The position numbers were made by a program, and so were the translations under genes. This document shows positions 503-49,437 of a DNA stretch of 64,000 bases, in pieces; the first letter of the stretch is position 1, and every line of letters starts with the position of its first letter. The notes beneath the pieces are model-generated. The model ran no database searches, was not told where the DNA came from, and worked only from the letters and a program-made list of their open reading frames with translations. The stretch lies in contig QKEV01000015.1 in NCBI GenBank assembly GCA_003252295.1, forward strand, positions 24,242 through 88,241, in the 5' to 3' direction. The stretch is from a bacterium. GTDB lineage: Bacteria; Patescibacteriota; Minisyncoccia; Phycocordibacterales; UBA12088.

Positions 503-513
503 TAGTTTACAGT

Positions 514-897: not shown

Positions 898-927
898 TAC
901 TTAATGCAATTGTTTACATAATAGATT

Positions 928-2029: not shown

Positions 2030-2081
2030 TAACATAAATTATTTTATTTTCATTATTAACGCTTAAAGTCATTGTTTTTGT

Positions 2082-3065: not shown

Positions 3066-3101
3066 TTGAAAAACGTATAAGAATGAGTATACTCAAAGAC
3101 C

Positions 3102-3455: not shown

Positions 3456-3459
3456 AAGT

Positions 3460-3819: not shown

Positions 3820-3820
3820 T

Positions 3821-4222: not shown

Positions 4223-4240
4223 TCAAATTATAATGCAACA

Positions 4241-4266
4241 AAAAAACCGGTACTGCCGGTTTTTTG
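4241..4266 (+). terminator. rho-independent terminator after rpsI
   Basis: A-run, then a CCGGTACTGCCGG hairpin, then TTTTTTGTT. Confidence 0.7.
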
Positions 4267-4268
4267 TT

Positions 4269-4305
4269 ATAAGTATTCAGGTGATAAATCACCTGAATAC
4301 TTATT
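4269..4305. repeat. perfect 17-bp-arm inverted repeat (ATAAGTATTCAGGTGAT-AA-ATCACCTGAATACTTAT)
   Basis: Read directly from the sequence. It sits between the rpsI terminator and the convergent minus-strand gene ending at 4453. Confidence 0.8.
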
Positions 4306-4452
4306 ATGTTTTTAACATAAATCTTTAATCTTTAGAACTTTCATATCTGAATGAAATTCAAGGCGCAAAGGAGCAAATAAGTGAGTCGTATAAATATACG
4401 GTGAGCTTATGAGCGACTGCAGCAACGATGAAGTTTGTCAGATATGAGAGTT

Positions 4453-8542: not shown

Positions 8543-8545
8543 TGT

Positions 8546-9679
8546 ATGAAGATTGCATTTACAGGAGGTGGAACAGGTGGTCATTTTTACCCACTTATAG
8601 CAGTAGCAGAGGAGTTGAATGATATTGTTCAAAAGAAGAACCTTATCACTCCGGAGATGTACTATCTCTCCAATATGCCATATGACGAACGTGTACTTTT
8701 CGAAAATAAGATCGAGTATAAGCATGTGACAGCTGGGAAGATGCGTAAGTACTTTTCACTCAAGAATGGCTTTGATTTTTTTAAGACGCTCGTGGGGCTC
8801 CCAAGTGCAGTAGCACTACTGTTCAAAATGTATCCTGACGTCGTGTTTAGCAAAGGTGGGTATGTGTCGGTACCAGTGGTGTTTGCGGCGCGACTTTTAC
8901 GTATCCCCGTGTTCATTCATGATTCTGATGCAATACCAGGCAGAGCAAACCTGTGGGCGGGAAAGTTTGCGGCTCGTGTTGCAGTGAGCTATCCTGATGC
9001 TGCTGATTACTTCAAACATAAAGAACGAGTAGCATACGTAGGTAATCCTGTTCGTAGGAAGATGCAGCTACCTGCAACAACCGAGTCTCATGCACACTTC
9101 AACTTACTGCCTAGTATTCCAACCATACTCGTACTCGGTGGCTCTCAGGGTGCAGAACATATTAATAATACGATGCAGCAAGCACTCAGCGAGCTTCTCA
9201 ATAACTATCAAGTGATACATCAGGTAGGAAAGGCGAACTATGATGTATACAAGAGAATTATTGATATGGAACTACAGGATCATCCAAACATTTCTCGGTA
9301 CAAAGTGGTTCCATTTTTAGAAGAGCTTGACATGCGTAATGCTGCAGGATGTGCAGATCTTATTATTTCTCGTGCTGGGTCAGGATCTATCTTTGAAATG
9401 GCTTGTTGGGCAAAACCTGCGATACTTGTCCCAATACCTGAGAGTGTGAGTCGTGATCAACGTAAGAATGCGTATGCGTATGCGCGTACAGGTGCAGCTG
9501 AGGTGATTGAACAGGAGAACTTCACCCCGCATGTACTTGTCTCAGAGGTGACCAGGTTAATGCAAGATGCAGCGACACGGGAAAAAATGAAGGAGGGTGC
9601 AAAACAGTTTGCTAAACCAGAGGCAGCGCATGTGATAGCACAAGAACTTTTGAAAATGATGCTTGAGCATGAGAAGTAG
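8546..9679 (+). CDS. murG: undecaprenyl-PP-MurNAc-pentapeptide UDP-GlcNAc transferase
   Basis: MKIAFTGGGTGGHFYPLIAVAEEL… plus a C-terminal GT28 domain. Canonical ftsW-murG order. Confidence 0.9.
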   Translation: MKIAFTGGGTGGHFYPLIAVAEELNDIVQKKNLITPEMYYLSNMPYDERVLFENKIEYKHVTAGKMRKYFSLKNGFDFFKTLVGLPSAVALLFKMYPDVVFSKGGYVSVPVVFAARLLRIPVFIHDSDAIPGRANLWAGKFAARVAVSYPDAADYFKHKERVAYVGNPVRRKMQLPATTESHAHFNLLPSIPTILVLGGSQGAEHINNTMQQALSELLNNYQVIHQVGKANYDVYKRIIDMELQDHPNISRYKVVPFLEELDMRNAAGCADLIISRAGSGSIFEMACWAKPAILVPIPESVSRDQRKNAYAYARTGAAEVIEQENFTPHVLVSEVTRLMQDAATREKMKEGAKQFAKPEAAHVIAQELLKMMLEHEK

Positions 9680-9684
9680 TATCA

Positions 9685-10074
9685 GTGAGTAAAGTAGAAA
9701 AAGAATTTATGTCAGAAAAAGTAGCAACACCTATAGTACCGAGTCTAACAAGACTCTTTCACATGGAAACAGCACAAAGTGCACCATTTAACTATTTGTA
9801 TAATAAGAAGCATAGTGGTGAGTTTATTGTGTGTGTTGAAGACACAGATCAAGCACGAAGCAAGAAAGAGTATGAAGATGATTTTACATACGACGTCGTA
9901 AGGGATGCAGTATGGGAGTATGATGAAGAAGTAGGGAAGGGGGATGTGCTCTGGCTACTGCGTGTTGCACTCTCTGGCAAGGAACGTTCCCCTGGCCCAT
10001 TCTTACTTGCTGAGTCACTTGGAAAAGAGGAAACACTGACATGTATTCAAGGAGCAAGAGTGGTGTATAGCTAG
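9685..10074 (+). CDS. GluRS-like 129-aa mini-protein, possibly a gltX remnant
   Basis: N-terminal part resembles the GluRS catalytic start (…FIVCVEDTDQARS compared with FxLRIEDTDxxRS, with a degenerate HIGH region). The C-terminus (LWLLRVALSGKERSPGPFLLAESLGKEETL) resembles the GluRS anticodon-domain tail. The entire middle is absent. Confidence 0.45.
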   Translation: MSKVEKEFMSEKVATPIVPSLTRLFHMETAQSAPFNYLYNKKHSGEFIVCVEDTDQARSKKEYEDDFTYDVVRDAVWEYDEEVGKGDVLWLLRVALSGKERSPGPFLLAESLGKEETLTCIQGARVVYS

Positions 10075-10084
10075 TTAAAAACAT

Positions 10085-11419
10085 ATGTCGTACGTAGTGT
10101 ACAAAAAAATAGCAACACTCATGACACTATTTTCGTTAGTGTGTGTGCTTGCTCTTGGTACTGCGTTGCAGATTGTTGGTGCAGAAGAGAGTGTCAGTGA
10201 GTTACGTGATAAGATCTCTGAGAGTCAAAAGCAGCTCAAGCTCATTGAGGAAGAAATAAAGAAGTATGAGCAACAGTTGAACGAGGTTGGGGCTGAGAAG
10301 GCAACACTGCAGAGTGCTATTCGTGAACTTGACCTCTCTCGTGAGAAAGTGAAAGCAAACATTCGTGCAACCGAGGAAAAGATATCCTCAACGGATCTAG
10401 AGATTGAAGAGCTTGAACGAGAGATTTACATTAAGGAACTTGAGATAACAAAGAACATGGAGGCAGTTGCTGAGACCTTTAGAAGTGTTGATCAGACTGA
10501 GGGGCAGACGATAATAGAGGTGATACTCGGTCATGACTCTATGGCAGAAGTATGGGATGAGCTTGAAGAGCAGACGCTCTTACAAGACTCACTTCGTCAG
10601 TCAGTGCGTATCCTGAATGCTCTTAAGACTGAGTATGAGAAAGCAAAGAACAAATCACTGGTAAAACGAGGTGAGCTTCAGGAGCTGAATAACGAGTTGA
10701 CCGGTGAGCAGAAATCACTCACCAATACGATATATCAAAAAGATACACTGCTTGATCAAACAAAAAATGAAGAGGCGGAGTATCAGCGTGTTCTTGCAGA
10801 AAAGAAAGCTGCAAAGGAGCGATTTGAAAAAGAGATAAGTGATTACGAAGCAAAGCTCAAGTTTATTTTGGATCCATCAACCATACCAGCTGCAGGTAGC
10901 GGTGTTTTGAAGTGGCCGTTTGAGCCGAGTTACATGGCGGACTGTCCAAGCTACGCTTCAGCGCTTGGTAACCAGTACTGTCTAACACAGTACTTTGGTA
11001 ACACTGCATTTGCGCAGTCTGGAGCATACAATGGACAAGGGCATAATGGTGTAGACTTTAGGGCTCAGATTGGTACAAGGGTGAACGCAGCTCTTGGTGG
11101 TACGGTACAGGAAGTGAACTATATCGCAGCGCAGAACTGTCAGTATGGTAAGTGGGTTCTCATAAAGCACGGCAATGGTCTTACAACACTCTATGGACAC
11201 CTTTCATCAGTGAGTGTTTCCAAGGGACAGTCGGTTAGTACAGGACAGCTTATTGGATACAGCGGTAACACTGGCTACTCAACAGGACCACACCTACACT
11301 TTACGGTATATGCATCAGATGCTGTACAGTTCAAAGACTACACCTGTAACAGTGGTCCAACGGTAAAGGTGCCGGTATCTGCTTATACGGGATACTTGAA
11401 CCCACTTAACTACTTGTAA
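10085..11419 (+). CDS. coiled-coil M23 family metallopeptidase (EnvC-like)
   Basis: Signal/TM, roughly 250 aa of coiled coil, then a C-terminal M23 core GHNGVDFRA…LIKHGNGLTTLYGHLS…GNTGYSTGPHLHFTVY. Confidence 0.8.
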   Translation: MSYVVYKKIATLMTLFSLVCVLALGTALQIVGAEESVSELRDKISESQKQLKLIEEEIKKYEQQLNEVGAEKATLQSAIRELDLSREKVKANIRATEEKISSTDLEIEELEREIYIKELEITKNMEAVAETFRSVDQTEGQTIIEVILGHDSMAEVWDELEEQTLLQDSLRQSVRILNALKTEYEKAKNKSLVKRGELQELNNELTGEQKSLTNTIYQKDTLLDQTKNEEAEYQRVLAEKKAAKERFEKEISDYEAKLKFILDPSTIPAAGSGVLKWPFEPSYMADCPSYASALGNQYCLTQYFGNTAFAQSGAYNGQGHNGVDFRAQIGTRVNAALGGTVQEVNYIAAQNCQYGKWVLIKHGNGLTTLYGHLSSVSVSKGQSVSTGQLIGYSGNTGYSTGPHLHFTVYASDAVQFKDYTCNSGPTVKVPVSAYTGYLNPLNYL

Positions 11420-11443
11420 AAAACTTTTATAAGAGTAACGTAA

Positions 11444-11722
11444 TTGTATATGGATAAGGAACAAAAAAACTCACACCAAAATGAGGTGAAGAAAGAAATA
11501 CAAATACAAGTGCCACGTGACATGAAGCCAATGTATGCAAATAGCGTAAAAATAAATGTCACTGATGAAGAAGTGATGTTGCAGTTTGCATACCTTCGTC
11601 CTGATCAAGGTACTGGTGTCTTGGTTGGCGATATGGTGCTTTCGCCAAAGCATGCCATGCGTTTTCAGAAGGCACTTGATGAGACCTTAAAGAAACACTT
11701 TACCAGGCATCTACCTGAATAG
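11444..11722 (+). CDS. DUF3467 family small protein
   Basis: …IQVPRDMKPMYANSVKINVTDEEVMLQFAYLRP…LSPKHAMRFQKALDE matches the DUF3467 pattern known to me. Confidence 0.65.
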   Translation: MYMDKEQKNSHQNEVKKEIQIQVPRDMKPMYANSVKINVTDEEVMLQFAYLRPDQGTGVLVGDMVLSPKHAMRFQKALDETLKKHFTRHLPE

Positions 11723-11750
11723 TCTAAGGTGAACGTACGTACACATAAAG

Positions 11751-11786
11751 ATGAGCAGTGTCATATGTACTCTGCTCATTTTTTTA
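11751..11786 (+). terminator. rho-independent terminator
   Basis: ATGAGCAG…CTGCTCAT hairpin followed by TTTTTTT. Confidence 0.75.
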
Positions 11787-12116
11787 ATGATAAAAAATAG
11801 TTACTAAATATTGTGCGACATTAAAACAGGGGATTAAAAGGGTAGAGCAGAGTAAAACGGAGTAGTGCACTACCTCTAAGGTATGGTGTGGACCTGTTAG
11901 AGGTGTGTCATAGACTGGTGGTGTGATACATGTATGTAGACGTATAAAATATTTTTAAAAAAAGTGATCAAAAATTTCAGTAAAATAATTTTGTATGATT
12001 TTTGTACTGTGGATAACTACAGCACGCTTAGACGAGATATTTGGCTGTATTGTCCACTTTAATTCGTTTTACATATATTGTGCGAACCAATGTATATGCT
12101 ACAATAGCACTACCCT

Positions 12117-13088
12117 ATGAAGATTCATCGTAGTTCAGAGCCAATAATTGAGCACATTATTCCTTTTCTTGACTACTGTGAGGTTGAGAAAGGTCTCTCA
12201 CAAAATACGCAGAAGAATTATCACCAGTACCTCCAACTTTTTACAAAGTGGCTTAGAGAGACTGGTAATGACTCCCTACTCCCCCACCAACTTGAGGGTA
12301 GTCATATTTGGGACTATCGACTATACCTCGCTCGTAAGTATAAGACGTCGAGGGGCGACTATCTTACAAAGAAATCTCAAAACTACTACCTCATTGCTCT
12401 TCGCGCATTACTAACCTACCTCACTGATCGTGACATCGAGACACTACCTCCATCAAAGGTGAAGTTGGCAAAGCAAAAGACTGAGGAGACGATTTCTTTT
12501 CTTGAGGTACGCGACATCGAGAAGATGCTTGCGATACCTGATACAACGACGTCGGTAGGTCTTCGCAATAGAGCTATCATGGAACTGTTCTTCTCGTCTG
12601 GTATGCGTATTTCTGAGCTCGTAGCACTCGATGTGGACCAGGTATCGTTTCTTGGTGATGGTAGTACCACGAGGACCTATGAGCTCTCCATTGTTGGTAA
12701 AGGAAGTCATGTGCGAACTATTTTTATCTCACCTCGTGCTGCTGAGTGGTTGCGTACCTACATCAAGAAAGAACGTCACGATGTACACAGGCCGCTCTTT
12801 ATTAACTTCCGTTCGAACTCAAAGAGTAGACGCCTTACTGCTCGTTCTATACAGAAGATGATCTCTCGCTATGCAATACTGGCTGGGCTCTCAAAGAAAG
12901 TGACGCCACACACCTTGCGACATACCTATGCTACTGACCTACTCTCCCACGGAGCGGACCTGAGGAGCGTACAAGAGCTTTTAGGTCACAAGAATGTCTC
13001 TACTACACAGATTTACACACATGTCACCAACAAACGTCTACGTGACATACATGAAAAGTTCCATGGTGGCAGTGATATGGAGCAGTAA
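12117..13088 (+). CDS. tyrosine site-specific recombinase, XerC/XerD family
   Basis: N-terminal SAM-like domain (…FLDYCEVEKGLSQNTQKNY…) and catalytic R…HxxR…Y motifs (GMRISEL…HTLRHTYATDLL…LGHKNVSTTQIYTHV). Confidence 0.85.
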   Translation: MKIHRSSEPIIEHIIPFLDYCEVEKGLSQNTQKNYHQYLQLFTKWLRETGNDSLLPHQLEGSHIWDYRLYLARKYKTSRGDYLTKKSQNYYLIALRALLTYLTDRDIETLPPSKVKLAKQKTEETISFLEVRDIEKMLAIPDTTTSVGLRNRAIMELFFSSGMRISELVALDVDQVSFLGDGSTTRTYELSIVGKGSHVRTIFISPRAAEWLRTYIKKERHDVHRPLFINFRSNSKSRRLTARSIQKMISRYAILAGLSKKVTPHTLRHTYATDLLSHGADLRSVQELLGHKNVSTTQIYTHVTNKRLRDIHEKFHGGSDMEQ

Positions 13089-13181
13089 TGCTTGAATCCC
13101 CTACTGTTGTTACTAAAACAAATCAACCCCGGGCTGCATGTATGTAGCGCGGGGTTGTATAAAATTTCCTTCTCGTTGCAC

Positions 13182-13958
13182 CTACCAACAGGAGGAGTTT
13201 GTGAGAGTTTTATCAATACATGTAGTAACCATGCTCACATTGATCTCAGAGCGACGATACTCATGGTCTACTTTTGGTATTACTTGGAATATGAAATTCT
13301 TATTTTGCTGATCACAGTACTTTTGTATATCTTCAGGGGTGCAGGTACTGTCATGCTCTCCTGCAAAGACAAATACCGGAACCTGCACTATGTGTGATTC
13401 AAGCAGTATGTCATATCGTGAGAAGTCGAGTGCATATGTGTATGGTACTAAGTACTCTAAACTGTACGTTGGGTTGTTAGGTAGATCTCTATTTGAGACC
13501 TTTACACCCTTTTTCTTCCAAAGAGAAAGGGTGTGCTCTGTCATTGCTCTTTTTACGGAGGGCATGATAGCGATCACTGCTTGTGCCATTCCATATCGTG
13601 CGGCAAAGAGTATTGCACAAGTTCCGCCAAGTGAATGTCCGCCTACGACAAGGTGGGAATACACTCCCCTTGTTTTCATGTACTCAATAATGGAATTGAA
13701 GTCCTGAAGTGTTTGTGTTATTGAGTAGTTATCGATTCTGCCATCACTGCTCCATGTGCCTGTTGGGTCAAATGTGACCACAGTATACTCGTGCTTTCGG
13801 GATATGAGTTCAGCTATTCGTGTGAGTCCCAGGTAGTCTTTTGAGTCAAGGAATCCCGGACAGAGCACCAGTAGCTTGTTCGAGTTTCGCTCTGCAAAGT
13901 AAATCGTAATCCCAATGGTACCGCTGGTTCCAGGAATAGTCTGCTGTTTAATATCCAT
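13182..13958 (-). CDS. alpha/beta-fold hydrolase
   Basis: GHSLGG nucleophile elbow, with downstream D and H residues. Confidence 0.7.
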   Translation of the reverse strand: MDIKQQTIPGTSGTIGITIYFAERNSNKLLVLCPGFLDSKDYLGLTRIAELISRKHEYTVVTFDPTGTWSSDGRIDNYSITQTLQDFNSIIEYMKTRGVYSHLVVGGHSLGGTCAILFAARYGMAQAVIAIMPSVKRAMTEHTLSLWKKKGVKVSNRDLPNNPTYSLEYLVPYTYALDFSRYDILLESHIVQVPVFVFAGEHDSTCTPEDIQKYCDQQNKNFIFQVIPKVDHEYRRSEINVSMVTTCIDKTLTNSSCW

Positions 13959-40790: not shown

Positions 40791-40863
40791 TCCGCGGTAG
40801 CTCAGCTGGTAGAGCGATCGGCTGTTAACCGATTGGTCGCAGGTTCGAGTCCTGCCCGCGGAG
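40791..40863 (+). tRNA. tRNA-Asn (anticodon GTT)
   Basis: Cloverleaf read by hand: acceptor TCCGCGG/CCGCGGA; D-arm GCTC-AGCTGGTA-GAGC; anticodon arm ATCGG-CTGTTAA-CCGAT; variable loop TGGTC; T-arm GCAGG-TTCGAGT-CCTGC; discriminator G. CCA is not encoded. Confidence 0.9.
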
Positions 40864-40867
40864 CAAC

Positions 40868-40916
40868 TAGAAAAGCACTATTCTTAGTGCTTTTCTGCGT
40901 ATAAGGGGAACGGGAA
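40868..40916 (+). repeat. copy 1 of a 49-bp direct repeat (contains terminator hairpin AAAAGCACTATTCTTAGTGCTTTT)
   Basis: TAGAAAAGCACTATTCTTAGTGCTTTTCTGCGTATAAGGGGAACGGGAA recurs at 45903-45951 with 3 mismatches. Confidence 0.85.
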
Positions 40917-40940
40917 TAGAACTTTTGTTATACTTTGCGT

Positions 40941-41489
40941 ATGAAAGCACCAAATATTGAAACAAACTCTTACCTAATAAGACCCTTTAAAACTAGCGAT
41001 GCGGAACTATGGCAGAAGTGGGATATAGACCCAGAAGTTCAGGCATTTATGCCTGAACCATTTAATGAAGTGCAAGATATTGAAGAGCAATACAAATACA
41101 TTGAAGAATGTGAAGCTGATGAAGAAGGGTGCTACTGGTCAATTGAGACTAAAAACGGAACTACTATCGGTACGGTGGCACTTACAGAGATCAATGAGTA
41201 TCACAAAATTGCCAACCTTGGTATAGTGATCGGTGATAAAAACCACTGGGGCAAGGGAGTTGCAACTGAGGTAATTACTGCCATAGTTGCACACGCATTT
41301 GAACAACTACATCTTTGCAGGATCAGTGCTGAAGTTGAAGAAGGGAACGTGGGAATGATAAAGGTTTTTAAAAAGGTTGGGTTTAAACAAGATGGACTTT
41401 TGGAATCAGCACGTCTGAAGAATACAAAACGTATCAATGTCCACCATTTTGGTTTTGTTAAACCTTCATGCAAAGTTAAATCAAAATAA
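40941..41489 (+). CDS. GNAT-family N-acetyltransferase (RimJ/RimL-like)
   Basis: …IGTVALTEINEYHKIANLGIVIGDKNHWGKGVATEVITAIVAHAFEQL… acetyl-CoA binding motifs. ATG at 40941; the ORF-track start is TTG at 40935. Confidence 0.8.
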   Translation: MKAPNIETNSYLIRPFKTSDAELWQKWDIDPEVQAFMPEPFNEVQDIEEQYKYIEECEADEEGCYWSIETKNGTTIGTVALTEINEYHKIANLGIVIGDKNHWGKGVATEVITAIVAHAFEQLHLCRISAEVEEGNVGMIKVFKKVGFKQDGLLESARLKNTKRINVHHFGFVKPSCKVKSK

Positions 41490-41590
41490 TCAGATTACTT
41501 TTCCCTCCATCGCCCGAATGAACATCAACTGATTGTACATGCCCGTCATGTACTTTCCGTCACCCAGAATGCTTATAATAGCGTCATGTT

Positions 41591-41632
41591 CGCGGAGCTT
41601 GATAAAGCACGTTCAGAAATGAACGTGCTTTT
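41591..41632 (+). repeat. tRNA-3'-end-like element (CGCGGAGCTTGATAAA) plus hairpin AAAGCACGTTC-AGAAAT-GAACGTGCTTT
   Basis: Same GCGGAGC core as the tRNA-Asn 3' end, again followed by a hairpin and T-run. GCGGAGCTTGATAAA recurs at 44592-44606. Confidence 0.6.
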
Positions 41633-41646
41633 GGTATAGTTTGGGT

Positions 41647-42441
41647 ATGGAAGCGATACTTATAACAATAGGACTATTTGTCAGAACCATACAACTACTA
41701 TTACCTGGTTTCTCAAAAATTGATGTTGCAAATATCTTTATTGCAATCGTTGCTGGATTATTTCTTGCGGGCAAGGCAGGAGCAATATTAGCTTTTCCAT
41801 TTGGTTTTGCCCTAATTATTGCTTTATTTTATAAAAATAAAATTTTACCAACAATTACCGAAGGGACTTTATTTTTATACGCTGTAGTTGCAACATATAT
41901 TGCTGTCAGGGACATTGAGTCATTTTCAGCACTATCTAGCACTTATTTAATATTGCTTTTGTTTCTTTCACTTTACGTACTTGTGGGTTTTTACCTTTGT
42001 GTAACAAAAACGAAAGTGCCATCCTTTTTGCAAATCATTTTAATGGTATTTTTTCTTTCAAATGCAATTTATATCGCGTACCAAAGTAGTCTAGTGTTTC
42101 TCATTACTGATAGTTCACCTTTAACACATTTATTGATTGGATATTTTGGTCTCTATTTTATAAGTCACATTTTGTATATCCTCGCCTTAATCCCACTTCC
42201 TGGGAAACATCAATCTTTTAAAGATAGGATGAAAGAGGTGAGAAAACACGCTCAATTCCTAGAAAAGAAATATTCGGATAAAGATATCAATATTAAAAAT
42301 ACTCTAGGTCTTGTTGCTGTAATTATATTGGCCTTCTCCTATAATTATTTCTACAATGATTGGATTACTAGTGTTGTATTACTCCTTATTATAGGTGGCT
42401 ACTTAGCCGCACCAAATAATTTTAAGTTATTAAGCAAATAA
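41647..42441 (+). CDS. polytopic membrane protein, hypothetical
   Basis: About 7 predicted TM helices. No confident family match. Confidence 0.5.
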   Translation: MEAILITIGLFVRTIQLLLPGFSKIDVANIFIAIVAGLFLAGKAGAILAFPFGFALIIALFYKNKILPTITEGTLFLYAVVATYIAVRDIESFSALSSTYLILLLFLSLYVLVGFYLCVTKTKVPSFLQIILMVFFLSNAIYIAYQSSLVFLITDSSPLTHLLIGYFGLYFISHILYILALIPLPGKHQSFKDRMKEVRKHAQFLEKKYSDKDINIKNTLGLVAVIILAFSYNYFYNDWITSVVLLLIIGGYLAAPNNFKLLSK

Positions 42442-42477
42442 TTTATTTTACTCAATTCAACCTCTATCTTTTTCCAA

Positions 42478-42549
42478 TTCAGAGTTCTGAACTTGTCCAG
42501 CACGGGAGCAATAAGAAAAAACAGTATCGTCTTGATACTGTTTTTTCTT
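42478..42549 (+). repeat. island repeat unit R1 (TTCAGAGTTCTGAACTTGTCCAGCACGGGAGCAAT) plus perfect 16-bp-arm hairpin
   Basis: AGTTCtGAACT palindrome followed by a degenerate tRNA 3' end (CGGGAGCAA), then AAGAAAAAACAGTATC-GTCTT-GATACTGTTTTTTCTT. Homologous units occur at 43297-43332 and 49373-49404. Confidence 0.75.
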
Positions 42550-42680
42550 ATCTCGCTATCATGGTCACGGACTCGAACCTATGGACCACATTTTCAAGGA
42601 GTGGAGCGACCATGAAAATGTAGGATCTCGACCATAGGGAGAGGCGAGTCCTGCTTGTGCGTCGAAACGAAGTGAAGGAG

Positions 42681-42723
42681 TGCCCGCGGAGCAATTGACA
42701 ATACCACTATCTAGTGGTATTGT
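42681..42723 (+). promoter_or_regulatory. tRNA-3'-end copy (TGCCCGCGGAGCAA) fused to a sigma70-like promoter TTGACA-N17-TATTGT with an embedded operator palindrome
   Basis: -35 TTGACA at 42695-42700, -10 TATTGT at 42718-42723, 17-nt spacer. Perfect IR AATACCACT-ATCT-AGTGGTATT at 42700-42721. The AAGGAGG SD and ATG at 42756 follow. Confidence 0.7.
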
Positions 42724-42755
42724 TTGTTTAGTTAGCCTTTTGAAAAGGAGGAAGG

Positions 42756-43172
42756 ATGGAAACAATATATGCGATACTAAAAACATTAAAAAGTTTTGGG
42801 TCAGCAAAAGATGTTCCTTTTAGAAAAAGGTCACCTCAGGAAATCATCAGCTCGGGAGTATTTAGTGGATGTTCTGATGTAGCACTTGCTTTTGCGTATC
42901 TGTGCAAGAGTTCAGAGATAAGGGTTCATATTGTTGATACTTTTGACAAAATAATGTTCTCCAAAACCCTAGGTATGGAAGGTATAACAGGGCATGTGTA
43001 TTGTCAGGTATTTAATTCCGATGACACCTGGGTCATGGTTGACCCAACAGTAGGTGCCGTTGATGTTGATATCTGCTCGGATGGACGTGTCCCTATTGTG
43101 TCATACCTAGACAACAGTAAGCTCCTTTCATATGAAGAACTGTGTTTTATAAAAAGTACCTTTCAGGACTAG
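42756..43172 (+). CDS. transglutaminase-like (Cys-His-Asp) core mini-protein, 138 aa
   Basis: Cys in SGCSDVALAFAYLCK, His in GHVYCQVF and Asp in WVMVDPT, in the order and spacing of the transglutaminase-like cysteine peptidase core. Confidence 0.5.
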   Translation: METIYAILKTLKSFGSAKDVPFRKRSPQEIISSGVFSGCSDVALAFAYLCKSSEIRVHIVDTFDKIMFSKTLGMEGITGHVYCQVFNSDDTWVMVDPTVGAVDVDICSDGRVPIVSYLDNSKLLSYEELCFIKSTFQD

Positions 43173-43173
43173 C

Positions 43174-43215
43174 CCGCCCACAACGAAAACCGTTGGAGGG
43201 CGGTTTTCTTTTTAT
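43174..43215 (+). terminator. rho-independent terminator
   Basis: CCGCCCACAACG…CGTTGGAGGGCGG hairpin followed by TTTTCTTTTTAT. Confidence 0.7.
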
Positions 43216-43296
43216 GCAAAGGAGTTCTGAACTACTCTATTTTTAAATAACTCAAAAAACATACCTTGTTTCAATTCACGTTGTATTCTCTTCCAG

Positions 43297-43360
43297 TTCA
43301 CAGTTCTGAACTTGTCCAGTACGGGGAGCAATTGACAATACCACTATCTAGTGGTATTGT
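43297..43360 (+). promoter_or_regulatory. island repeat unit R3 plus promoter/operator module (second copy)
   Basis: TTCACAGTTCTGAACTTGTCCAGTACGGGGAGCAAT, then TTGACA (43332-43337), N17 containing AATACCACT-ATCT-AGTGGTATT, then TATTGT (43355-43360). Near-identical to 42681-42723. A further AGTTCTGAACT lies at 43213-43223. Confidence 0.75.
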
Positions 43361-43428
43361 TTTGTTTGGCTAAAGTCTGTTCCTACGGTAATTGAATCAC
43401 AAATCATTTAGCATGCTTGGAGGAATAA

Positions 43429-43938
43429 ATGAAAAGTATAGAATATACTGAAATTGCTGGTCATGATAATCTGAATAAGTTTTTAAACGACAGAAATAAA
43501 ATTATCTTAGAATGCAACGATGCGATTCGTAAAGTTGCTAACAAGTTAATTATCAAAGCGAAAGATGAAAGGATTACACTCTGCCGGTTACCTTTGAAAG
43601 CAGTGTTGTTTCGCACAAAAGAAGACCGTGAAGCTAAACGTAATAACACTTTCATCAACTATGGTGAGTATCATGTGGATGAACTTGAACTGTATTACGT
43701 GGAATTTTTTGTACACAACGAAGCAAGAGTTGCTGGCAATATAGGACTCATTATTTCTGGAAAACAGCCAGATCGAACTACAGGTGATTTTAGTTATATT
43801 TGTGGTTTCGAGGATTTTGATTACGTTGATTTGTCATGGGGAAAGAACTGGTTCTTTTTAAACAAAAATGACTATTTTACGTTTAAGGAAGTAGTCTTGA
43901 ATTTTAAAAAGGAACTACCCTCTTGCGTAGTGCAGTAA
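43429..43938 (+). CDS. hypothetical protein (169 aa), island cargo
   Basis: GGAGG SD. No recognisable family. Confidence 0.45.
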   Translation: MKSIEYTEIAGHDNLNKFLNDRNKIILECNDAIRKVANKLIIKAKDERITLCRLPLKAVLFRTKEDREAKRNNTFINYGEYHVDELELYYVEFFVHNEARVAGNIGLIISGKQPDRTTGDFSYICGFEDFDYVDLSWGKNWFFLNKNDYFTFKEVVLNFKKELPSCVVQ

Positions 43939-43952
43939 AATACGTACAAAAA

Positions 43953-43990
43953 ACCTGTCTAGTAGCCTGTCTCTGGACAGGTTACTTTTT
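43953..43990 (+). terminator. rho-independent terminator
   Basis: ACCTGTC…GACAGGT hairpin followed by TACTTTTTAT. Confidence 0.6.
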
Positions 43991-44015
43991 ATATACACGT
44001 TCGAACATCGTCCCA

Positions 44016-44056
44016 CGCTCGGAGCAATTGACAATACAGTAGTAAAATGACATTGT
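44016..44056 (+). promoter_or_regulatory. island unit R4: CGCTCGGAGCAAT plus TTGACA and a degenerate -10
   Basis: Same GGAGCAATTGACAATAC junction as R2 and R3. The downstream -10 region has diverged (CATTGT/TTGTTA). Confidence 0.5.
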
Positions 44057-44125
44057 TAATTTTGGATAATTTCTGTTTTTTACTATGTAATAAATTTAAA
44101 AAACTTTTGAAAACATGAGGTTGTT

Positions 44126-44296
44126 ATGAATCGACGAAGTGACAAGTTTTGTGCTCCACCACCAACATCTCGTTCCTATCCAGGTAAGGGTAGTTATCAG
44201 ATGGAATGTTTAAGGCGCAACGCAATAATCAAACTTCAGTTTGTTGTTGTAGCAGTTGTCATAGTAGCTATTTTGGTTACCCTGCCTTTTTTGTAA
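44126..44296 (+). CDS. 56-aa small protein with C-terminal TM helix (MNRRSDKFCAPPPTSRSYPGKGSYQMECLRRNAIIKLQFVVVAVVIVAILVTLPFL)
   Basis: Below the ORF cutoff. GAGG SD 5 nt upstream. Tail-anchored topology. Confidence 0.35.
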   Translation: MNRRSDKFCAPPPTSRSYPGKGSYQMECLRRNAIIKLQFVVVAVVIVAILVTLPFL

Positions 44297-44528
44297 GTTT
44301 TGGTCGTTTGTATGTTTGTAGACAGAAACTATTAAGCCGCTTAGGAAGATGTAATCCAAGCGGCTTTAATTTGTAAAATATAACTGAATAATGGGGTCTG
44401 ACCCCGTTTCATAAAAGGTGACTGACCCCTTTTTTCCTTGCTGTTTCTCTCTAACAAGGACCAGGAAAATTTTCTGGCCCTTTTGCGTTACAAGTGTCTT
44501 AGGGGTAAACCGCTTTGTTTAATCAATG

Positions 44529-44584
44529 AATGAACATGCCATGCCTGCCCGGCACCCTTTGTGGTGTCTCGGGGCATGTTCATT
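44529..44584. repeat. perfect 12-bp-arm inverted repeat (AATGAACATGCC…GGCATGTTCATT) with a 32-nt GC-rich loop
   Basis: Lies in the 350-nt non-coding stretch 44297-44647, which also holds hairpins at 44334-44366 and 44393-44436. The tRNA-3'-like TGCGGAGCTTGATAAA follows at 44591. Confidence 0.6.
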
Positions 44585-44647
44585 GGATGCTGCGGAGCTT
44601 GATAAAAAAACATATAAAATAAATGTTATTGGTGTATTATAGGATAT

Positions 44648-44776
44648 ATGAAATTTGAAGAAGTGCATTACCAAGAGCCGGTTCCAGAAATGGAAAGTTT
44701 TGAAAAAGTTGACGACTTTCTTGAAAATGAAGAAGGGGTCCTTGCAACTCTTCGTAAAAAAACAAAAAAGAGGTGA
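44648..44776 (+). CDS. 42-aa acidic small protein (MKFEEVHYQEPVPEMESFEKVDDFLENEEGVLATLRKKTKKR)
   Basis: Protein-like frame. Its stop TGA sits inside the GAGGTGA SD of the next ORF, consistent with translational coupling. Preferred over the overlapping K-rich frame that the ORF track starts at 44655. Confidence 0.35.
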   Translation: MKFEEVHYQEPVPEMESFEKVDDFLENEEGVLATLRKKTKKR

Positions 44777-44780
44777 TAAC

Positions 44781-44948
44781 TTGGAAGCAGTAAATGTAGA
44801 ACACAAAGAAGATTTAGTTCTTGGTTTTGTTGGACCTCTAACTGATGAATTTTCTTCACAGATGCAACCGCACAATGCAGAAAATTTTGGCTGCGTAGAC
44901 TGTATTGATTGTGTATGTGATGTAGGTCCTTGCGATTGCGACACTTAA
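44781..44948 (+). CDS. 55-aa Cys/Asp-rich peptide (…SQMQPHNAENFGCVDCIDCVCDVGPCDCDT), candidate modified-peptide precursor or metal-binding peptide
   Basis: TTG start 5 nt after the GAGGTG SD. Six Cys alternating with Asp in the last 18 residues, preceded by a leader-like region. Confidence 0.4.
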   Translation: MEAVNVEHKEDLVLGFVGPLTDEFSSQMQPHNAENFGCVDCIDCVCDVGPCDCDT

Positions 44949-45032
44949 GTCGCTTAAAAGTTAATCTCAACATACTGGCCATTTTCTTTGGCCAGTATTA
45001 TTTTATAATCAAATAAACATTTTAAAAAGATA

Positions 45033-45722
45033 ATGAGCAAGGTCATATTTGGCACTAATAAAGACAAAGATTTCAGAAACCATCTTATACAGCTGAGATG
45101 GCGAAATAAAACTGGTTTTACGTATTCTCCAGCAGAAAGTGAGTACTTTGATTCTCTGGAGAGATGTAAGGATGAGCTTGAGCAATGGAAGCTGTTTGAA
45201 GATTACTCACGTGAGTATTATTTGGAGGACAATAAACAGACAATTAATTCTGTTTTAAGTTATTTTCAAACATTGTGGAATAATGTTGAAGAAGTGTATG
45301 TTAAAAAAATGGAAGAAATGCACAATAAAGTATTTCCTTACAAAACAGTTTATGGTTATTTGTCTACGTCGCCAGGTGGCTGGGGCTTCAATTTAAATAA
45401 AAAAAACCCTTGGTTTGCATGTCCCAATAAAAAGAATGACAAGTTCCTAAAAGTTGCAATGCATGAACTCATGCATGGTTTTTTTATTGAATATTTTAGA
45501 GATGACTTAAAAGAAAAATACCGTTTAACTGACAACAAACTTTGGGATATTCAAGAGTCATTAACGGTGCTTCTAAATATTGAATTAGGTGATATTCTGC
45601 CTCACAAAGACTTGGGGTATCCACAACACAAAGAGTTACGCGAAGAAGTTAAGTCGGTATGGTTAGAGACAAGTGATATTGATGAGGTCCTGCGACGTGC
45701 AAGTCAATTTACTAAAGGGTAA
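45033..45722 (+). CDS. HExxH-motif protein, putative zinc metallopeptidase-like (229 aa)
   Basis: AMHELMHGFF is the only recognisable motif. No signal peptide. An A8 homopolymer lies in the CDS at 45399-45406. Confidence 0.5.
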   Translation: MSKVIFGTNKDKDFRNHLIQLRWRNKTGFTYSPAESEYFDSLERCKDELEQWKLFEDYSREYYLEDNKQTINSVLSYFQTLWNNVEEVYVKKMEEMHNKVFPYKTVYGYLSTSPGGWGFNLNKKNPWFACPNKKNDKFLKVAMHELMHGFFIEYFRDDLKEKYRLTDNKLWDIQESLTVLLNIELGDILPHKDLGYPQHKELREEVKSVWLETSDIDEVLRRASQFTKG

Positions 45723-45902
45723 TACCTTTGACTATTTTGTTTATACAAACGAAATGTGTTTGTAATTATTAAAAACTAATTTTAGTTGTTCTCTAACGAT
45801 AAATTTTGTTGTTGTAATGCTGATGCAACAGGACTTCTTTCCAGTTTTCTTTCCCATTCTACCCAGTTCACGTTTATAAAGGTGCTTAGGTGTTGGAGCC
45901 CT

Positions 45903-45951
45903 TAGAAAAGCACTATTCTTAGTGCTTTTCTGCGTATAGGGGGAACAGGAT
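45903..45951 (+). repeat. copy 2 of the 49-bp direct repeat
   Basis: 46 of 49 positions identical to 40868-40916. Preceded by a GGAGCC tRNA-end-like remnant. Confidence 0.85.
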
Positions 45952-46059
45952 TTGAACCATACTAAATACTATATAGTAAATATAACAATATTATGCTAAA
46001 ACACAGGTAGAAAAATAAATGACCACAATACCTAATATCAAATATGGAGGTTGTTGCAT

Positions 46060-47232
46060 ATGCAAACTGATCAAGTTTTGTCGGCACTGTACGAGTGTTT
46101 TCGTGGGAAGGGTTGGAGGTTATATACCTGCACTACATGTAATAATCTCATTTTCTCAAAAAATGCGAAAACACTTTGTTGGAGAAGGAAAGAATGTGGG
46201 CAAGAAAAAAAGTTTTTGTCATTACCAAAACAGAAAGCGATGGTAGTTCCGGGGCAAATCAAGGATGTAATAGAAAAAGCTGCTACAAAAAAGGGTTACA
46301 ATCGCGTGGAAAGTATTCCACTTACCGCTAACCATGGGAAAACAGATTTAATTATTGCTGGTGTACAGCTGTATAACGATGTAATTCATGGGAAAGCAAT
46401 ACAATCTTGCTTTCCTGACCGTTGTGTAATATCTCAACCGTGTGTACGGATGCAGTTTGCTGATAAGGTTGGTAAAGTAGATGGTATTTCGACCGCATTT
46501 GTAAACACATGTACCGAGCACGTTGGAGCTACGGTTGTCGAACATGCATTTGCCGTGGATTTTTGGCTAGACGTGCTTTCATGCCTTGGTTTGCATGTGT
46601 GTGATGTGTCGCTGGTATATCGTACAAAGAAACGAAATTGGGGGACAGGTGATTTTCTTTCCCATGATTTATTTTTTATGTATGGTGATTTAGAACTGGG
46701 TGATGCTTCCTATGCAGTTGTCCCAACTAGGTGTGCAGGTGGTTCAGGGGTATTGCAGATTAGTGACGTAGGCTTTGGGGTAGAACGAATCGGATGGGCA
46801 ATCAATAAAACTGATACGTACTATGACGTGTTACAACCATGGGACATGCAGTATACGACAGAAGTTAACGATCTGTACCGTACACTTACGTTACTTGCTA
46901 TGACCGGTGTTAAACCTGGACCAAAAGGTGCAGGGTTACAGTTTCGTCGCCTTGCAAAACAATTATACCTTCTGACTCCAAACATCTTTTCATTTGGTCT
47001 TGTAAGTTACTATTTTCGGTATTGGGGTTCGTTTACGACATGTCTTTGTGGATTAGAAGTTTCTTCTTCTGTAATTTCTCGCGAGTATGATAGGTTGCGT
47101 AACAATGGGATCGCAAGTAACAATAATTGGCCTGCCCCAAAAAATGATGAGAGTACAGAAGAATACCTTGAAAGAATGGTGTATAGTAAAATAGTAACTC
47201 CCAGTGAGTTGCGTAAGATGTACACACCATGA
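46060..47232 (+). CDS. alanyl-tRNA-synthetase catalytic-core paralog (class IIc fold) with N-terminal Cys-rich zinc-ribbon-like segment; lacks tRNA-recognition, editing and C-Ala domains
   Basis: Collinear with the AlaRS N-domain. VIEKAATKKGYNRVESIPL…DLIIAGVQ compares with F…KGH.V.SS.LVP.NDPTLLFTNAGM. SQPCVRMQF compares with TSQ.C.RAGG. ISDVGFGVERIGWAINKTDTYYDVL compares with VDTGMGLERLAAVLQ…SNYD.DLF (motif 3). About 390 aa against about 870 aa for AlaRS. ATG at 46060 with a GGAGG SD. Confidence 0.6.
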   Translation: MQTDQVLSALYECFRGKGWRLYTCTTCNNLIFSKNAKTLCWRRKECGQEKKFLSLPKQKAMVVPGQIKDVIEKAATKKGYNRVESIPLTANHGKTDLIIAGVQLYNDVIHGKAIQSCFPDRCVISQPCVRMQFADKVGKVDGISTAFVNTCTEHVGATVVEHAFAVDFWLDVLSCLGLHVCDVSLVYRTKKRNWGTGDFLSHDLFFMYGDLELGDASYAVVPTRCAGGSGVLQISDVGFGVERIGWAINKTDTYYDVLQPWDMQYTTEVNDLYRTLTLLAMTGVKPGPKGAGLQFRRLAKQLYLLTPNIFSFGLVSYYFRYWGSFTTCLCGLEVSSSVISREYDRLRNNGIASNNNWPAPKNDESTEEYLERMVYSKIVTPSELRKMYTP

Positions 47233-47918
47233 AAAAACAAAAACTAAAGCTATACTTGTCTGGGGGTGGTGACGAAACACAGTCATTCGCCCTCGACAAG
47301 CTTTTTTTTACTTCAATTCCTGAAAATGGAAAGGTTTTGTATATACCTATAGCTTTACGTGGTCACAAACTCTTTTTAAATGCACATATGTGGTTTTCTG
47401 GTGTAGTAAAGAAACATGGTCGTGATGATATACAGGTTGTGCGTTGTGATGATGTTGACACAATAACAATTAAGAAAATATCTCTGTATGATGCTGTGTA
47501 TATAGGTGGAGGAAATACTTGGTCACTTATAAAAGAAGTATCTGAAGCTGGTTTTGATGAAGTGTTAAAAAAATATATAACAGAAGGAGGGGTGGTATAC
47601 GGCGGGAGTGCTGGTGCAATTCTTCTTGGCACTTGTATTGATACAAGTGATGATGAAAATGTTGTGAAATGGAATAATATAAATGGATTAGATCTTATTT
47701 CTCCTTACTCAGTGGTTTGTCACTATACGGAAGTCATGGAGAAACGATATTCTGGTTGGGCAAACAAACATGGACCTATTATTTGCATTCCTGAAAATGC
47801 AGGGATGTACACAGAAGGTAACAGTTTGGTAAATTGTGGTAACGGTATGATAACCGTTTTTGATACTTCTGGAAAAAAAATAGAATACTCTGCAAATGAG
47901 TGCTTAATGTTCGAATAA
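47229..47918 (+). CDS. peptidase S51 family (dipeptidase E / cyanophycinase-like)
   Basis: VYIGGGNTWSLI, GGSAGAILL (Ser nucleophile) and a downstream His, collinear with PepE. Start overlaps the AlaRS-like stop (ATGA). Confidence 0.75.
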   Translation: MKKQKLKLYLSGGGDETQSFALDKLFFTSIPENGKVLYIPIALRGHKLFLNAHMWFSGVVKKHGRDDIQVVRCDDVDTITIKKISLYDAVYIGGGNTWSLIKEVSEAGFDEVLKKYITEGGVVYGGSAGAILLGTCIDTSDDENVVKWNNINGLDLISPYSVVCHYTEVMEKRYSGWANKHGPIICIPENAGMYTEGNSLVNCGNGMITVFDTSGKKIEYSANECLMFE

Positions 47919-47923
47919 ACTGT

Positions 47924-47952
47924 AAAAGCACTTCGGGTATCGAAGTGCTTTT
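47924..47952. terminator. bidirectional terminator
   Basis: AAAAGCACTTCG-GGTAT-CGAAGTGCTTTT between the convergent S51 gene and the SAM-synthetase gene. Confidence 0.8.
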
Positions 47953-47968
47953 ATTGTCAAACCAGTTC

Positions 47969-49225
47969 TCAGTAAAGGATGCATTTACCTTCAATGATTT
48001 CCTGAGAAAGAACAGAAAGGTTTTTCATAGTATCAATGTAAATATCTTTCACTGTATCTTCGTGCCTCCCGAGTAGTTTGGGTCTGTTTATTTCTATAGA
48101 AGCCATCCAAGGATCATCCAGGTTTCTGCCCATCTGGGATGTGATAAACACCTTACATTCTGTGTTTATTGCATTGAATACATTGTCCGCAATTCTTTGT
48201 GCTGCTGCTGTGTACAGTTTTCCAACATGGTAAATAGGATTTTTGCCACAACATGCCTCCATACTCATGTTTCTTGTAAACGGGATAATGCCGTTATGTC
48301 GGTTCCCTCGACCTACCACACCTTCGTCACCGCTTTCGATGGCACTTCCTATGGCAGTTAAGTAAAAATCTTGACGAGCCGCATTATCACGAGTATTTAA
48401 CTCAACTGAGTAGTTGTAGTACGGATACATTGTCTTTGCGTGTCCCAGTATTATCTCTGAAACCTCTTGAAGAGATTTGCGATAAAAAACCAGGGAGTTT
48501 GTATACGCAGCGACAAATGGTATACATGCGGTGATTTTTACGTTTCTGCCATTTCTTACTGACATAACCTTGATGTCAGTACCAACATAAGGATGCTCCT
48601 TTTTAAAACCCTTAAATTCGTTGAGTTGGTTTTCGATAGCAATGGTAAGTAGTTCTATTTCGCTTAACGGAGCATACGCCACAGCAGTTGAAGTGTCGTT
48701 GGAGCGGAGATCATTGTCGTGATAACGGGCAAATTTTATGTTCGGTACTGTAAAAAAATGCCCGCGTTCATTTTTTGTATTACCGTCCTTGCTATGTACA
48801 ACCCCCGGTCCGGGTGCCATATGAGTGTTGTCAATAATTGTTAGCCATTGTTCAACGTCAAGGAGCGGCATTACAGCTTTAAAGTGTTTCTTTGCAGCAT
48901 TGCTCGCGATATCAAGATAAGGTACCTCGCGTCCTTCAAAGTCTTTAGTAAAACGACAGTTCAGGTATAGGTGTATCGGACGTTCCATAAATCCTTTACC
49001 AAACTGAACGTGTGAGGCTCCTCCAGCAAGTGCAATTTTGTCCACCATGTGTCGTAACACCACACCGTGTTCATTAAGAGTGTATTGTGAATATGCCTGT
49101 GAAATTTTTTCAGCAATTGTGTCACAGAGTGTGTCTGGGTGACCTATTCCCTTTCGTTCCACCACCTCAAACGGTGTTTCTGAGCAAAGTGTGTTTTGTT
49201 GAGCAATAACTGTAAAATTGTTCAT
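47969..49225 (-). CDS. S-adenosylmethionine synthetase, archaeal type (MAT)
   Basis: ERKGIGHPDTLCDTIAE N-terminal motif and overall collinearity with the archaeal AdoMet synthetase family, not bacterial MetK. Confidence 0.8.
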   Translation of the reverse strand: MNNFTVIAQQNTLCSETPFEVVERKGIGHPDTLCDTIAEKISQAYSQYTLNEHGVVLRHMVDKIALAGGASHVQFGKGFMERPIHLYLNCRFTKDFEGREVPYLDIASNAAKKHFKAVMPLLDVEQWLTIIDNTHMAPGPGVVHSKDGNTKNERGHFFTVPNIKFARYHDNDLRSNDTSTAVAYAPLSEIELLTIAIENQLNEFKGFKKEHPYVGTDIKVMSVRNGRNVKITACIPFVAAYTNSLVFYRKSLQEVSEIILGHAKTMYPYYNYSVELNTRDNAARQDFYLTAIGSAIESGDEGVVGRGNRHNGIIPFTRNMSMEACCGKNPIYHVGKLYTAAAQRIADNVFNAINTECKVFITSQMGRNLDDPWMASIEINRPKLLGRHEDTVKDIYIDTMKNLSVLSQEIIEGKCILY

Positions 49226-49372
49226 CGTATCTCTCCTTTAGGTTTCCTTGATTGTGAGCTTCTCTTTTCTGCACCTGTAATAACACGTTTATTTTACTAT
49301 TTCAATAGTAGAGCTTTGTCTTCGGTAAGTGCAATACATAAACTTTGTATATTTTTTTGCACTGTCTTTCAC

Positions 49373-49437
49373 TTCACAGTTCTGAACTTGTCCAAGAGTG
49401 GGAGTAAAGAGATTAAGCACCAGAAATGGTGCTTTTT
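49373..49437 (+). repeat. island repeat unit R5 (…TTCACAGTTCTGAACTTGTCCAAGAGTGGGAG…) plus hairpin AGCACCAGAAATGGTGCTTTTT
   Basis: Third full copy of the AGTTCTGAACTTGTCCA element with a degenerate tRNA-end segment, again followed by a terminator-like hairpin. Confidence 0.7.

Follow-up and report, generated by a model that had tools for sequence, protein, structure and literature searches.

What is encoded by two very short reading frames that follow each other closely in a patescibacterial genome, and is the cysteine-rich peptide that ends the pair a genuine gene product? The pair, here called ORF A and ORF B (ORF, open reading frame), lies in a stretch of 64,000 nucleotides (contig QKEV01000015.1 of assembly GCA_003252295.1, positions 24,242 to 88,241), and "the window" hereafter means this whole stretch. 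A first-pass annotation of the window, made from the sequence, had described the two frames as translationally coupled and had likened ORF B to ribosomally made precursor peptides. Taking all of the evidence together, we consider it probable that ORF B is the orphaned Cys/Asp precursor of a three-gene radical S-adenosylmethionine (rSAM) module, that this module is truncated in the window, and that ORF A is incidental. The features on which this account rests are the following (aa, amino acids; SD, Shine-Dalgarno sequence):

44781-44948, forward strand: ORF B, the precursor-peptide gene, 55 aa, with a TTG start at 44781 and a TAA stop at 44946-44948.
Within ORF B, forward strand: leader, approximately residues 1-37, followed by the Cys/Asp core, residues 38-55 (44892-44945).
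44814-44840, forward strand: leader motif L-V-L-G-F-V-G-P-L of ORF B, invariant or nearly so across the family (consensus LxLGF(V/I)G).
44770-44776, forward strand: SD GAGGTGA of ORF B, whose TGA doubles as the ORF A stop.
44648-44776, forward strand: ORF A, 42 aa, with an ATG start at 44648 and a TGA stop at 44774-44776, a locus-specific orphan with an acidic N-terminal part and a K-rich tail.

The sequence features reported in the first pass (ORF A, the SD with its embedded TGA, the TTG-initiated ORF B and its Cys/Asp tail) all agree with these coordinates. The C-terminal 18 residues of ORF B (CVDCIDCVCDVGPCDCDT) contain six Cys and five Asp, and the core is spelled C-V-D-C-I-D-C-V-C-D-V-G-P-C-D-C-D, with a Cys-to-Asp spacing of n = 1 or 0. 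When the window was translated in six frames, a stop-free stretch of 18 residues with at least six Cys and at least four Asp occurred in ORF B only, and the same composition was reached in 0 of 30 shuffled windows; Cys-richness by itself does arise by chance in wrong frames of the window. The TTG at 44781 aligns exactly with the ATG of homologues (GAGGTGATAACTTG in the window, GAGGTGATGATATG in the related locus L006; L-numbers denote related loci and P-numbers proteins). This alignment identifies the 97-aa ORF from 44655 and the annotated 73-aa upstream start (P0001) as read-through artefacts, in line with the earlier view that the K-rich frame at 44655 is a mistranslation. Neither Pfam nor NCBIfam assigned ORF A, ORF B or the homologous peptides to a family (for the window peptide, P0002 and P0003, 0 NCBIfam families at E <= 0.01-0.1), and an Rfam search of 40.5-50 kb found tRNA-Asn only, with no riboswitch or leader RNA 5' of ORF B. 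A sigma-70 promoter scan gave six sites versus 7.0 in shuffles, and the sole plus-strand site lies inside ORF A (44700-44728). Such precursor genes, of about 55 aa, are routinely overlooked or mis-started in annotation, as the window's 73-aa P0001 illustrates, and as does the public annotation of L004 (7653-7970, minus strand) and L005 (127-444, minus strand), in which an antisense 105-aa ORF is called and the real 56-aa precursor is missed. Equivalent spurious antisense ORFs are present in the window, at 44668-44982 and 44519-44944 on the minus strand.

ORF B belongs to a small family of about a dozen relatives, mostly from metagenome-derived genomes of Patescibacteria (the candidate phyla radiation, CPR). 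Among 5.8 billion protein clusters, searched by word index, three matches emerged, namely the window peptide and two peptides of 54-55 aa. HMMER, run exhaustively with a profile against 1.84 billion representatives, recovered the window peptide at E = 3.6e-29 and added P0019-P0022. Two other matches of the profile search, P0018 and P0023, are repetitive proteins sharing just the leader-like motif, and were set aside as false positives. Six-frame reading revealed unannotated peptide copies upstream of every close homologue of the HExxH-motif protein encoded next to ORF B, and a validated degenerate DNA pattern identified four further loci in metagenome contigs. Homologues of ORF B are therefore available as annotated proteins (P0002, P0003, P0019-P0022) and as unannotated genes in L004/5, L006, L009, L011 and L042-L045. 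Alignments of the window peptide with P0002, P0003, P0019 and others extend over its full length, and every copy carries the LxLGF(V/I)G leader and a C-terminal core of the form ...VDCIDCV(x5)CxCD(T/L/V/I). Cys and Asp occur in these cores at a ratio of about 1:1 (relatives, 9:9, 8:8, 7:6 and 6:6; window, 6:5). Family members differ in the N-terminal half of the core, and the Cys count is six in L006 too and five in P0021.

Conservation of the reading frame was the point on which the first-pass annotation had, beforehand, made its proposal depend. The frame is unbroken in all 11 or more related sequences, and pairwise comparison of the last 18 codons gave a synonymous difference (pS) of 0.4-1, i.e., essentially saturated synonymous sites, versus a non-synonymous difference (pN) of 0.00-0.14. 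In the core, pS stands at about 0.8-1 and pN at 0.05-0.10. Saturated synonymous change with little non-synonymous change in an intact frame indicates strong purifying selection, and ORF B is hence a genuine conserved gene, whose product is a precursor made up of leader and Cys/Asp core. The presumed role of the LxLGF(V/I)G motif is that of a recognition element for modifying enzymes.

The proposal that ORF B encodes a ribosomally made precursor gained further support from the neighbours of the homologous peptides, which the first-pass annotation had recommended for inspection. Related loci share the gene order peptide, conserved terminator hairpin, 229-aa HExxH protein and 443-aa rSAM enzyme with a SPASM domain (rSAM/SPASM), and this triad is found in L001, L002, L004/L005/L043, L006/L010, L009, L011/L044 and L045. 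In L004, for example, the three genes span 7763-7933 (peptide), 8001-8690 (HExxH) and 8798-10129 (rSAM), and the rSAM gene of L001 spans 11014-12345. The L002 contig ends inside the third gene, and rSAM presence was scored in related loci long enough to show it; in every one of these, the rSAM gene directly adjoins the HExxH gene. Two elements of the module are present downstream of ORF B:

44972-44998, forward strand: intrinsic terminator or attenuator hairpin (ACTGGCCA...TGGCCAGT and a U-rich tail), from a terminator scan, between the precursor and HExxH genes.
45033-45722, forward strand: HExxH protein (229 aa, zincin/gluzincin-like fold), a partner conserved alongside the peptide.

The hairpin folds with z = -4.4 (0 of 200 shuffles fold as well) and its stem is invariant in seven of seven aligned loci; its placement would be the classic arrangement giving more precursor than enzyme transcript. 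Two distant loci, L016 and L031 (the latter from a Pacearchaeota metagenome-assembled genome), keep the same triad with unrelated small ORFs rich in Cys and Asp (Glu), at 1495-1644 in L016 (...NCYTCDCGDGCDGYGNDCVSCDSDD) and at 9829-9993 in L031 (...EKCDDGNCDEPCSGGCPLF...). That the triad persists with unrelated peptides strengthens the functional link between its three genes, and hints at a wider superfamily in genomes of CPR bacteria and DPANN archaea that gene callers have overlooked.

The third protein of the related loci matches Pfam Radical_SAM, Fer4_12 and SPASM, and has a CxxxCxxC motif at residue 19, a SPASM Cx2Cx5Cx3C motif at residue 301 and 14 invariant Cys. With its CxxxCxxC so close to the N-terminus, the enzyme lacks an N-terminal peptide-recognition (RRE) domain. 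In NCBIfam, its top matches are all SPASM maturases of cofactors or of RiPPs (ribosomally synthesised peptides that undergo post-translational modification), including NirJ2, AhbD, MftC, GeoRSP, ScmE, WgkB, PapB and AlbA, among others. The enzyme reaches no curated NCBIfam cut-off and no equivalog, and therefore represents an uncharacterised SPASM clade.

The HExxH partner is likewise conserved. The window protein is 51-61% identical to its counterparts in seven loci, and H144, E145, H148 and E175 are invariant in 14 HExxH sequences, E175 being the likely third metal ligand downstream of the HExxH motif. The protein has the zincin catalytic fold, and the sole Pfam match of the L001 orthologue is to PF11667 (DUF3267, a putative zincin peptidase; E = 0.022, 15.5 bits versus a cut-off of 27.1). 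No NCBIfam family, including the IPR026337-type HExxH-modification domain, matched the window protein (E <= 0.01) or the L001 orthologue (E <= 0.1), and a profile search of the family against PDB sequences found no relative, its single match, TIM13, being spurious. The family is tiny: the cluster database lists 14 of its proteins, and scans of one genome per species detected it in 33 loci, nearly all from Patescibacteria (including Paceibacterota, Saccharibacteria, Adlerbacteria and Nomurabacteria) along with a few DPANN archaea. This distribution, together with features such as the archaeal-type S-adenosylmethionine synthetase in the window, suggests a CPR origin for the window. We presume that the HExxH protein acts as a leader peptidase. 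An alternative that we regard as somewhat unlikely is that it is an Fe(II)/alpha-ketoglutarate oxygenase that beta-hydroxylates core Asp (or other) residues after cross-linking, similar to ChlH, PflC and BpmH. In RiPP systems that combine an rSAM enzyme with an alpha-ketoglutarate-dependent HExxH protein (ChlB/ChlH triceptides, PflC/PosC, BpmH), Asp is a known hydroxylation target (PMC12636437). These systems resemble the module in that their RiPP clusters pair an rSAM enzyme with an HExxH protein of zincin fold, but the HExxH protein here is separate, is 229 aa long and does not match that family in sequence, and the core lacks the aromatic residues needed for a cyclophane.

The window has a truncated module, with the peptide and HExxH genes kept and the rSAM gene lost. 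Translated homology to the related loci (tblastx) is confined to 44753-45761 and ends about 40 nt past the HExxH stop, in a remnant of the intergenic spacer:

45723-45761, forward strand: stump of the HExxH-rSAM spacer (TTGACT at 45728-45733), from an alignment with five related spacers.

Across the 64 kb, no ORF of at least 150 aa contains CxxxCxxC, and tblastn with the rSAM protein of a related locus finds nothing. The earlier statement that the window contains no maturase is thus borne out for rSAM enzymes; for LanB/C-type enzymes it stands as far as the roughly 30 window proteins scanned against Pfam, none of which matched, no exhaustive search having been aimed at them. The window copy is a maturase-less relic or satellite of the module. 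Persistence of the peptide without an rSAM gene could also mean that it works unmodified, as a small metal-binding or disulfide-rich Cys/Asp peptide for which the HExxH protein provides trimming only, and alternating Cys and Asp are good soft and hard metal ligands. We consider this distinctly improbable, as the strict family-wide linkage to rSAM/SPASM enzymes argues for an enzymatically modified native product, and as the peptide has no signal peptide and no transporter or metal-homeostasis gene nearby.

The setting of the truncated module is an array of repeats next to a tRNA gene, for which the relevant features are:

40791-40922, forward strand: tRNA-Asn (40791-40864, from ARAGORN and Rfam) and abutting repeat D3 copy 1 (40860-40922).
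44021-44077, forward strand: repeat D1 copy 3, the left cassette boundary (GGAGCAATTGACAATAC... and a hairpin).
45895-45957, forward strand: repeat D3 copy 2, the right cassette boundary (GGAGC and hairpin AGAAAAGCACTA-TTCT-TAGTGCTTTTCT).
46051-47232, forward strand: 393-aa protein resembling the catalytic domain of alanyl-tRNA synthetase (AlaRS), with the N-terminal AlaRS catalytic-domain signature alone (TIGR03683, E = 1.8e-10, far below cut-off).
47229-47918, forward strand: 229-aa S51/GATase-like protein, overlapping the AlaRS-like gene by 4 nt.
47969-49225, reverse strand: archaeal-type S-adenosylmethionine (SAM) synthetase (PF01941), opposite the AlaRS-like/S51 pair.

The second copy of D3 is 89% identical over 63 nt to 40860-40922, and its 36-nt exact core occurs at just these two sites in the 64 kb. 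Repeat D1 has three copies, at 42688, 43325 and 44021, which align with the tRNA-Asn 3'-end/hairpin module, and repeat D2 has three as well, at 42452-42506, 43271-43325 and 49347-49401, with the palindrome AGTTCTGAACT. The 13-mer at the tRNA-Asn 3' end (GCCCGCGGAGCAA) is exactly repeated at 42682, and GGAGCA-plus-hairpin modules resembling a tRNA 3' end lie near 42506, 42692, 43330, 44026 and 49401. GC content is 0.355-0.39 across 42-48 kb versus about 0.43 elsewhere in the window. We read 40791-49401 as a low-GC tandem array of small imported, repeat-bounded cassettes beside tRNA-Asn, the anchor of the array, with the peptide/HExxH pair as one cassette (approximately 44027-45899) and the AlaRS-like, S51 and SAM-synthetase genes as the next (approximately 45900-49401). 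Such low-GC series of small-cargo cassettes by a tRNA gene, with repeats that include tRNA 3'-end copies, resemble tRNA-linked island arrays, e.g., of the tycheposon type, but the window's array contains no integrase or recombinase and its repeat units also carry terminator hairpins. A scan of viral contigs for the core pattern and the AlaRS-like protein returned nothing, and so provides no evidence for a phage-borne module.

The first-pass annotation had placed the HExxH gene and the AlaRS-like/S51 pair next after ORF B. Their positions and the HExxH partnership hold, but the link to AlaRS-like/S51 does not: homologues of the AlaRS-like, S51 and SAM-synthetase genes were found in 0 of 45 related loci, which is consistent with a separate neighbouring cassette beyond the repeat boundary. 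These data also bear on the idea that the AlaRS-like ligase and the S51-like enzyme replaced the rSAM enzyme in tailoring the peptide. Peptides are substrates of ATP-dependent ligase-like enzymes in other systems, and the pair lies on the same strand within 330 nt after the HExxH gene. The same 0 of 45, together with the cassette-boundary repeat and its terminator hairpin between the pair and the HExxH gene, nevertheless makes such a replacement highly improbable.

Other parts of the array and of the related loci were also characterised. Two single-gene cassettes, each preceded by a D1 repeat copy, encode a 138-aa protein (42756-43172), whose weak transglutaminase-core match at E = 1.6e-4 falls narrowly short of the cut-off, and a protein of 169 aa without a family (43429-43938). 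The following 700 nt or so (43939-44647) have no credible ORF, show repeated GACCCC near 44400-44430 and a GC-rich hairpin with an 11-bp stem around 44529-44585 (fold z = -2.25), and may represent a small RNA or what is left of a degraded gene. An (A)GTTCTTT motif related to the D2 palindrome lies 3' of a -10-like box at the peptide and rSAM promoters of related loci, and may be a shared operator or a transcript 5' element. The complete triad of L004/L043 adjoins tRNA-Ser and a serine recombinase, accompanied in L004 (all within the 3234-4831 region) by an EcoRI-type methylase, and that of L006 is surrounded (1-3742, 8147-13225) by type I restriction-modification genes and N4/N6 methylases. 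These variable, defence-island-like surroundings are consistent with horizontal mobility of the module.

ORF A, by comparison, is confined to this locus. It has no homologue but itself among the 5.8 billion protein clusters, tblastn in 41 loci gave no signal, and no upstream ORF ending in the SD precedes the peptide gene in the related loci inspected. Homology with related loci starts only at about 44753, inside ORF A, such that its last eight or so codons (…LRKKTKKR and the stop) are encoded by the conserved A-rich segment before and including the SD, and the remainder lies outside the homologous block. The RNA fold of the region is ordinary (z = -0.03). ORF A may be a young or orphan small gene, or possibly the 5' stump of a gene disrupted at the cassette junction. 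An alternative genetic code, with UGA read as Gly as in some CPR lineages, is irrelevant here, since the ORF A TGA is directly followed by TAA and long ORFs are normal with table 11.

The proposed coupling of the two frames into a functional unit would give ORF A an accessory, immunity or chaperone role, with initiation of ORF B driven by the termination of ORF A. The overlap of its stop with the SD and the 4-nt gap (TAAC) to the TTG fit such an arrangement, as does its gene-like codon usage: at 0.42 bits per codon, ORF A exceeds 407 of 407 spurious stop-free stretches of similar length in the window and beats 85% of true in-frame 42-codon windows. Termination of ORF A, if it is translated, could also aid initiation at the weak TTG. 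We nonetheless regard a deliberate coupled unit as quite unlikely. ORF A is unique to the window locus and has a weak SD of its own (AGGA, 3 nt from the ATG), while other family members have an ATG start and no upstream ORF. Moreover, SD variants (A)AGAGGTGAT or GGAGGTGA lie 6-9 nt 5' of the ATG in L001, L002, L004 and L006, all of which lack ORF A. Because the SD and its TGA are ancestral and conserved where ORF A is missing, the position of the stop inside the SD comes with the SD itself, and coupling is not shared across the family. ORF A would rather have arisen, or been kept, where the imported segment has its left edge.

If ORF B is the precursor of a truncated rSAM module, as we favour, what would the complete module make? 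Its type is already known, i.e., a leader-core precursor with an rSAM/SPASM maturase and a protease-like partner. The closest parallel is the ranthipeptide freyrasin (PapA/PapB), which likewise has a leader, a C-terminal core with equal Cys and Asp, and an rSAM/SPASM partner. PapB joins Cys-S to Asp-C-beta as a thioether and accepts Cys-Xn-Asp with n = 0-6 (PMC9413430). The precursors have no sequence relation to PapA and their spacing is C-x-D or C-D rather than C-x3-D, a difference that, given the tolerance of PapB, leaves thioether chemistry open to them. The rSAM enzyme of the related loci differs from PapB in scoring 70.2 bits against the PapB family (NF047865; cut-off 340) and in lacking an RRE domain, and further differences from PapA/PapB are the extra conserved HExxH partner, the confinement to CPR and DPANN, and the absence of the maturase from the window. 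The Cys/Asp system would therefore work like a ranthipeptide without belonging to that family.

Two other known systems offer partial parallels. QhpD, an rSAM/SPASM enzyme, forms Cys-to-Asp/Glu side-chain thioethers in QhpC, which is also a small Cys/Asp-containing polypeptide; unlike the peptide family, QhpC is an enzyme subunit (quinohemoprotein amine dehydrogenase gamma) with a cysteine tryptophylquinone (CTQ) cofactor, encoded in a dehydrogenase operon, and no such genes are present here. SCIFF peptides (with CteB/Tte1186-type maturases) are similar in size (about 45-55 aa), in their Cys-rich C-terminus and in their adjacent rSAM/SPASM enzyme. They occur in Clostridia rather than CPR and have Cys/Thr/Gly-rich cores instead of alternating Cys and Asp, and neither the peptide nor the enzyme described here finds an NCBIfam match or equivalog, respectively.

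On the basis of these analogies, the leader motif would dock the peptide on the enzymes, the rSAM/SPASM enzyme would cross-link the alternating Cys and Asp, most likely through thioethers between Cys-S and Asp-C-beta, the linkage formed by PapB and QhpD, and the HExxH protein would cut off the leader or, alternatively, hydroxylate the core. Given cores with Cys and Asp at about 1:1, the chemistry of PapB and QhpD and the spacing tolerance of PapB, a densely thioether-bridged peptide is our best guess for the product. In the window, the precursor has most likely been orphaned and receives no maturation in cis; it may go unmatured altogether.

Several observations weigh against this account. The rSAM enzyme scores higher against NirJ2 (124 bits), AhbD (108) and MftC (91) than against PapB (70), making thioether formation just one option. 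The gene-like codon usage of ORF A suggests that this frame may be translated and matter. The window core and HExxH gene are intact with all invariant residues present, which fits continued function or recent loss, and the low Cys count (six) of the window peptide is not a sign of decay, since L006 and P0021 have equally few. Finally, the data cover the 64-kb window, and an rSAM enzyme may act in trans from elsewhere in the genome. In that case, a same-family rSAM/SPASM enzyme would mature the window peptide, and the cassette would serve as a second, functional precursor locus. RiPP systems commonly have additional precursor genes that are unlinked, and the SD and terminator are retained here along with the core, the leader motif and the invariant HExxH residues. 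Maturation in trans is still unlikely in our view, considering that the rSAM gene is immediately adjacent in all other loci, that no second copy is seen within the 64 kb, that CPR genomes are small, and that the start has been weakened from ATG to TTG.

Overall, the peptides represent a candidate new family of rSAM-modified RiPPs, rare and mainly found in Patescibacteria. No curated model fits the precursor family, the HExxH family, the rSAM clade, the alternating Cys/Asp core or the restriction to CPR, and no paper describing these families was found, an absence from the literature searched that is not in itself proof of novelty. CPR genomes are tiny and are thought to be limited largely to essential and host-interaction genes, and, to our knowledge, secondary-metabolite-like peptides are almost unknown from these bacteria. 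Tentatively, then, the family may constitute a RiPP class that is new and all but restricted to ultra-small episymbionts (Patescibacteria and some DPANN), whose products would form an unusually dense cage with up to nine Cys-Asp cross-links in about 27 residues, and whose module would travel as cargo of tRNA-linked cassettes; the window would then capture a natural maturase-less state, with the precursor and HExxH genes persisting, perhaps with a newly acquired coupled upstream ORF. A conserved, mobile three-gene rSAM module with a core of nearly all alternating Cys and Asp is a compact and easily synthesised target for enzyme discovery, with a SPASM maturase clade and an HExxH partner that are both new, and the peptide family may point to molecules of episymbiont-host interaction.

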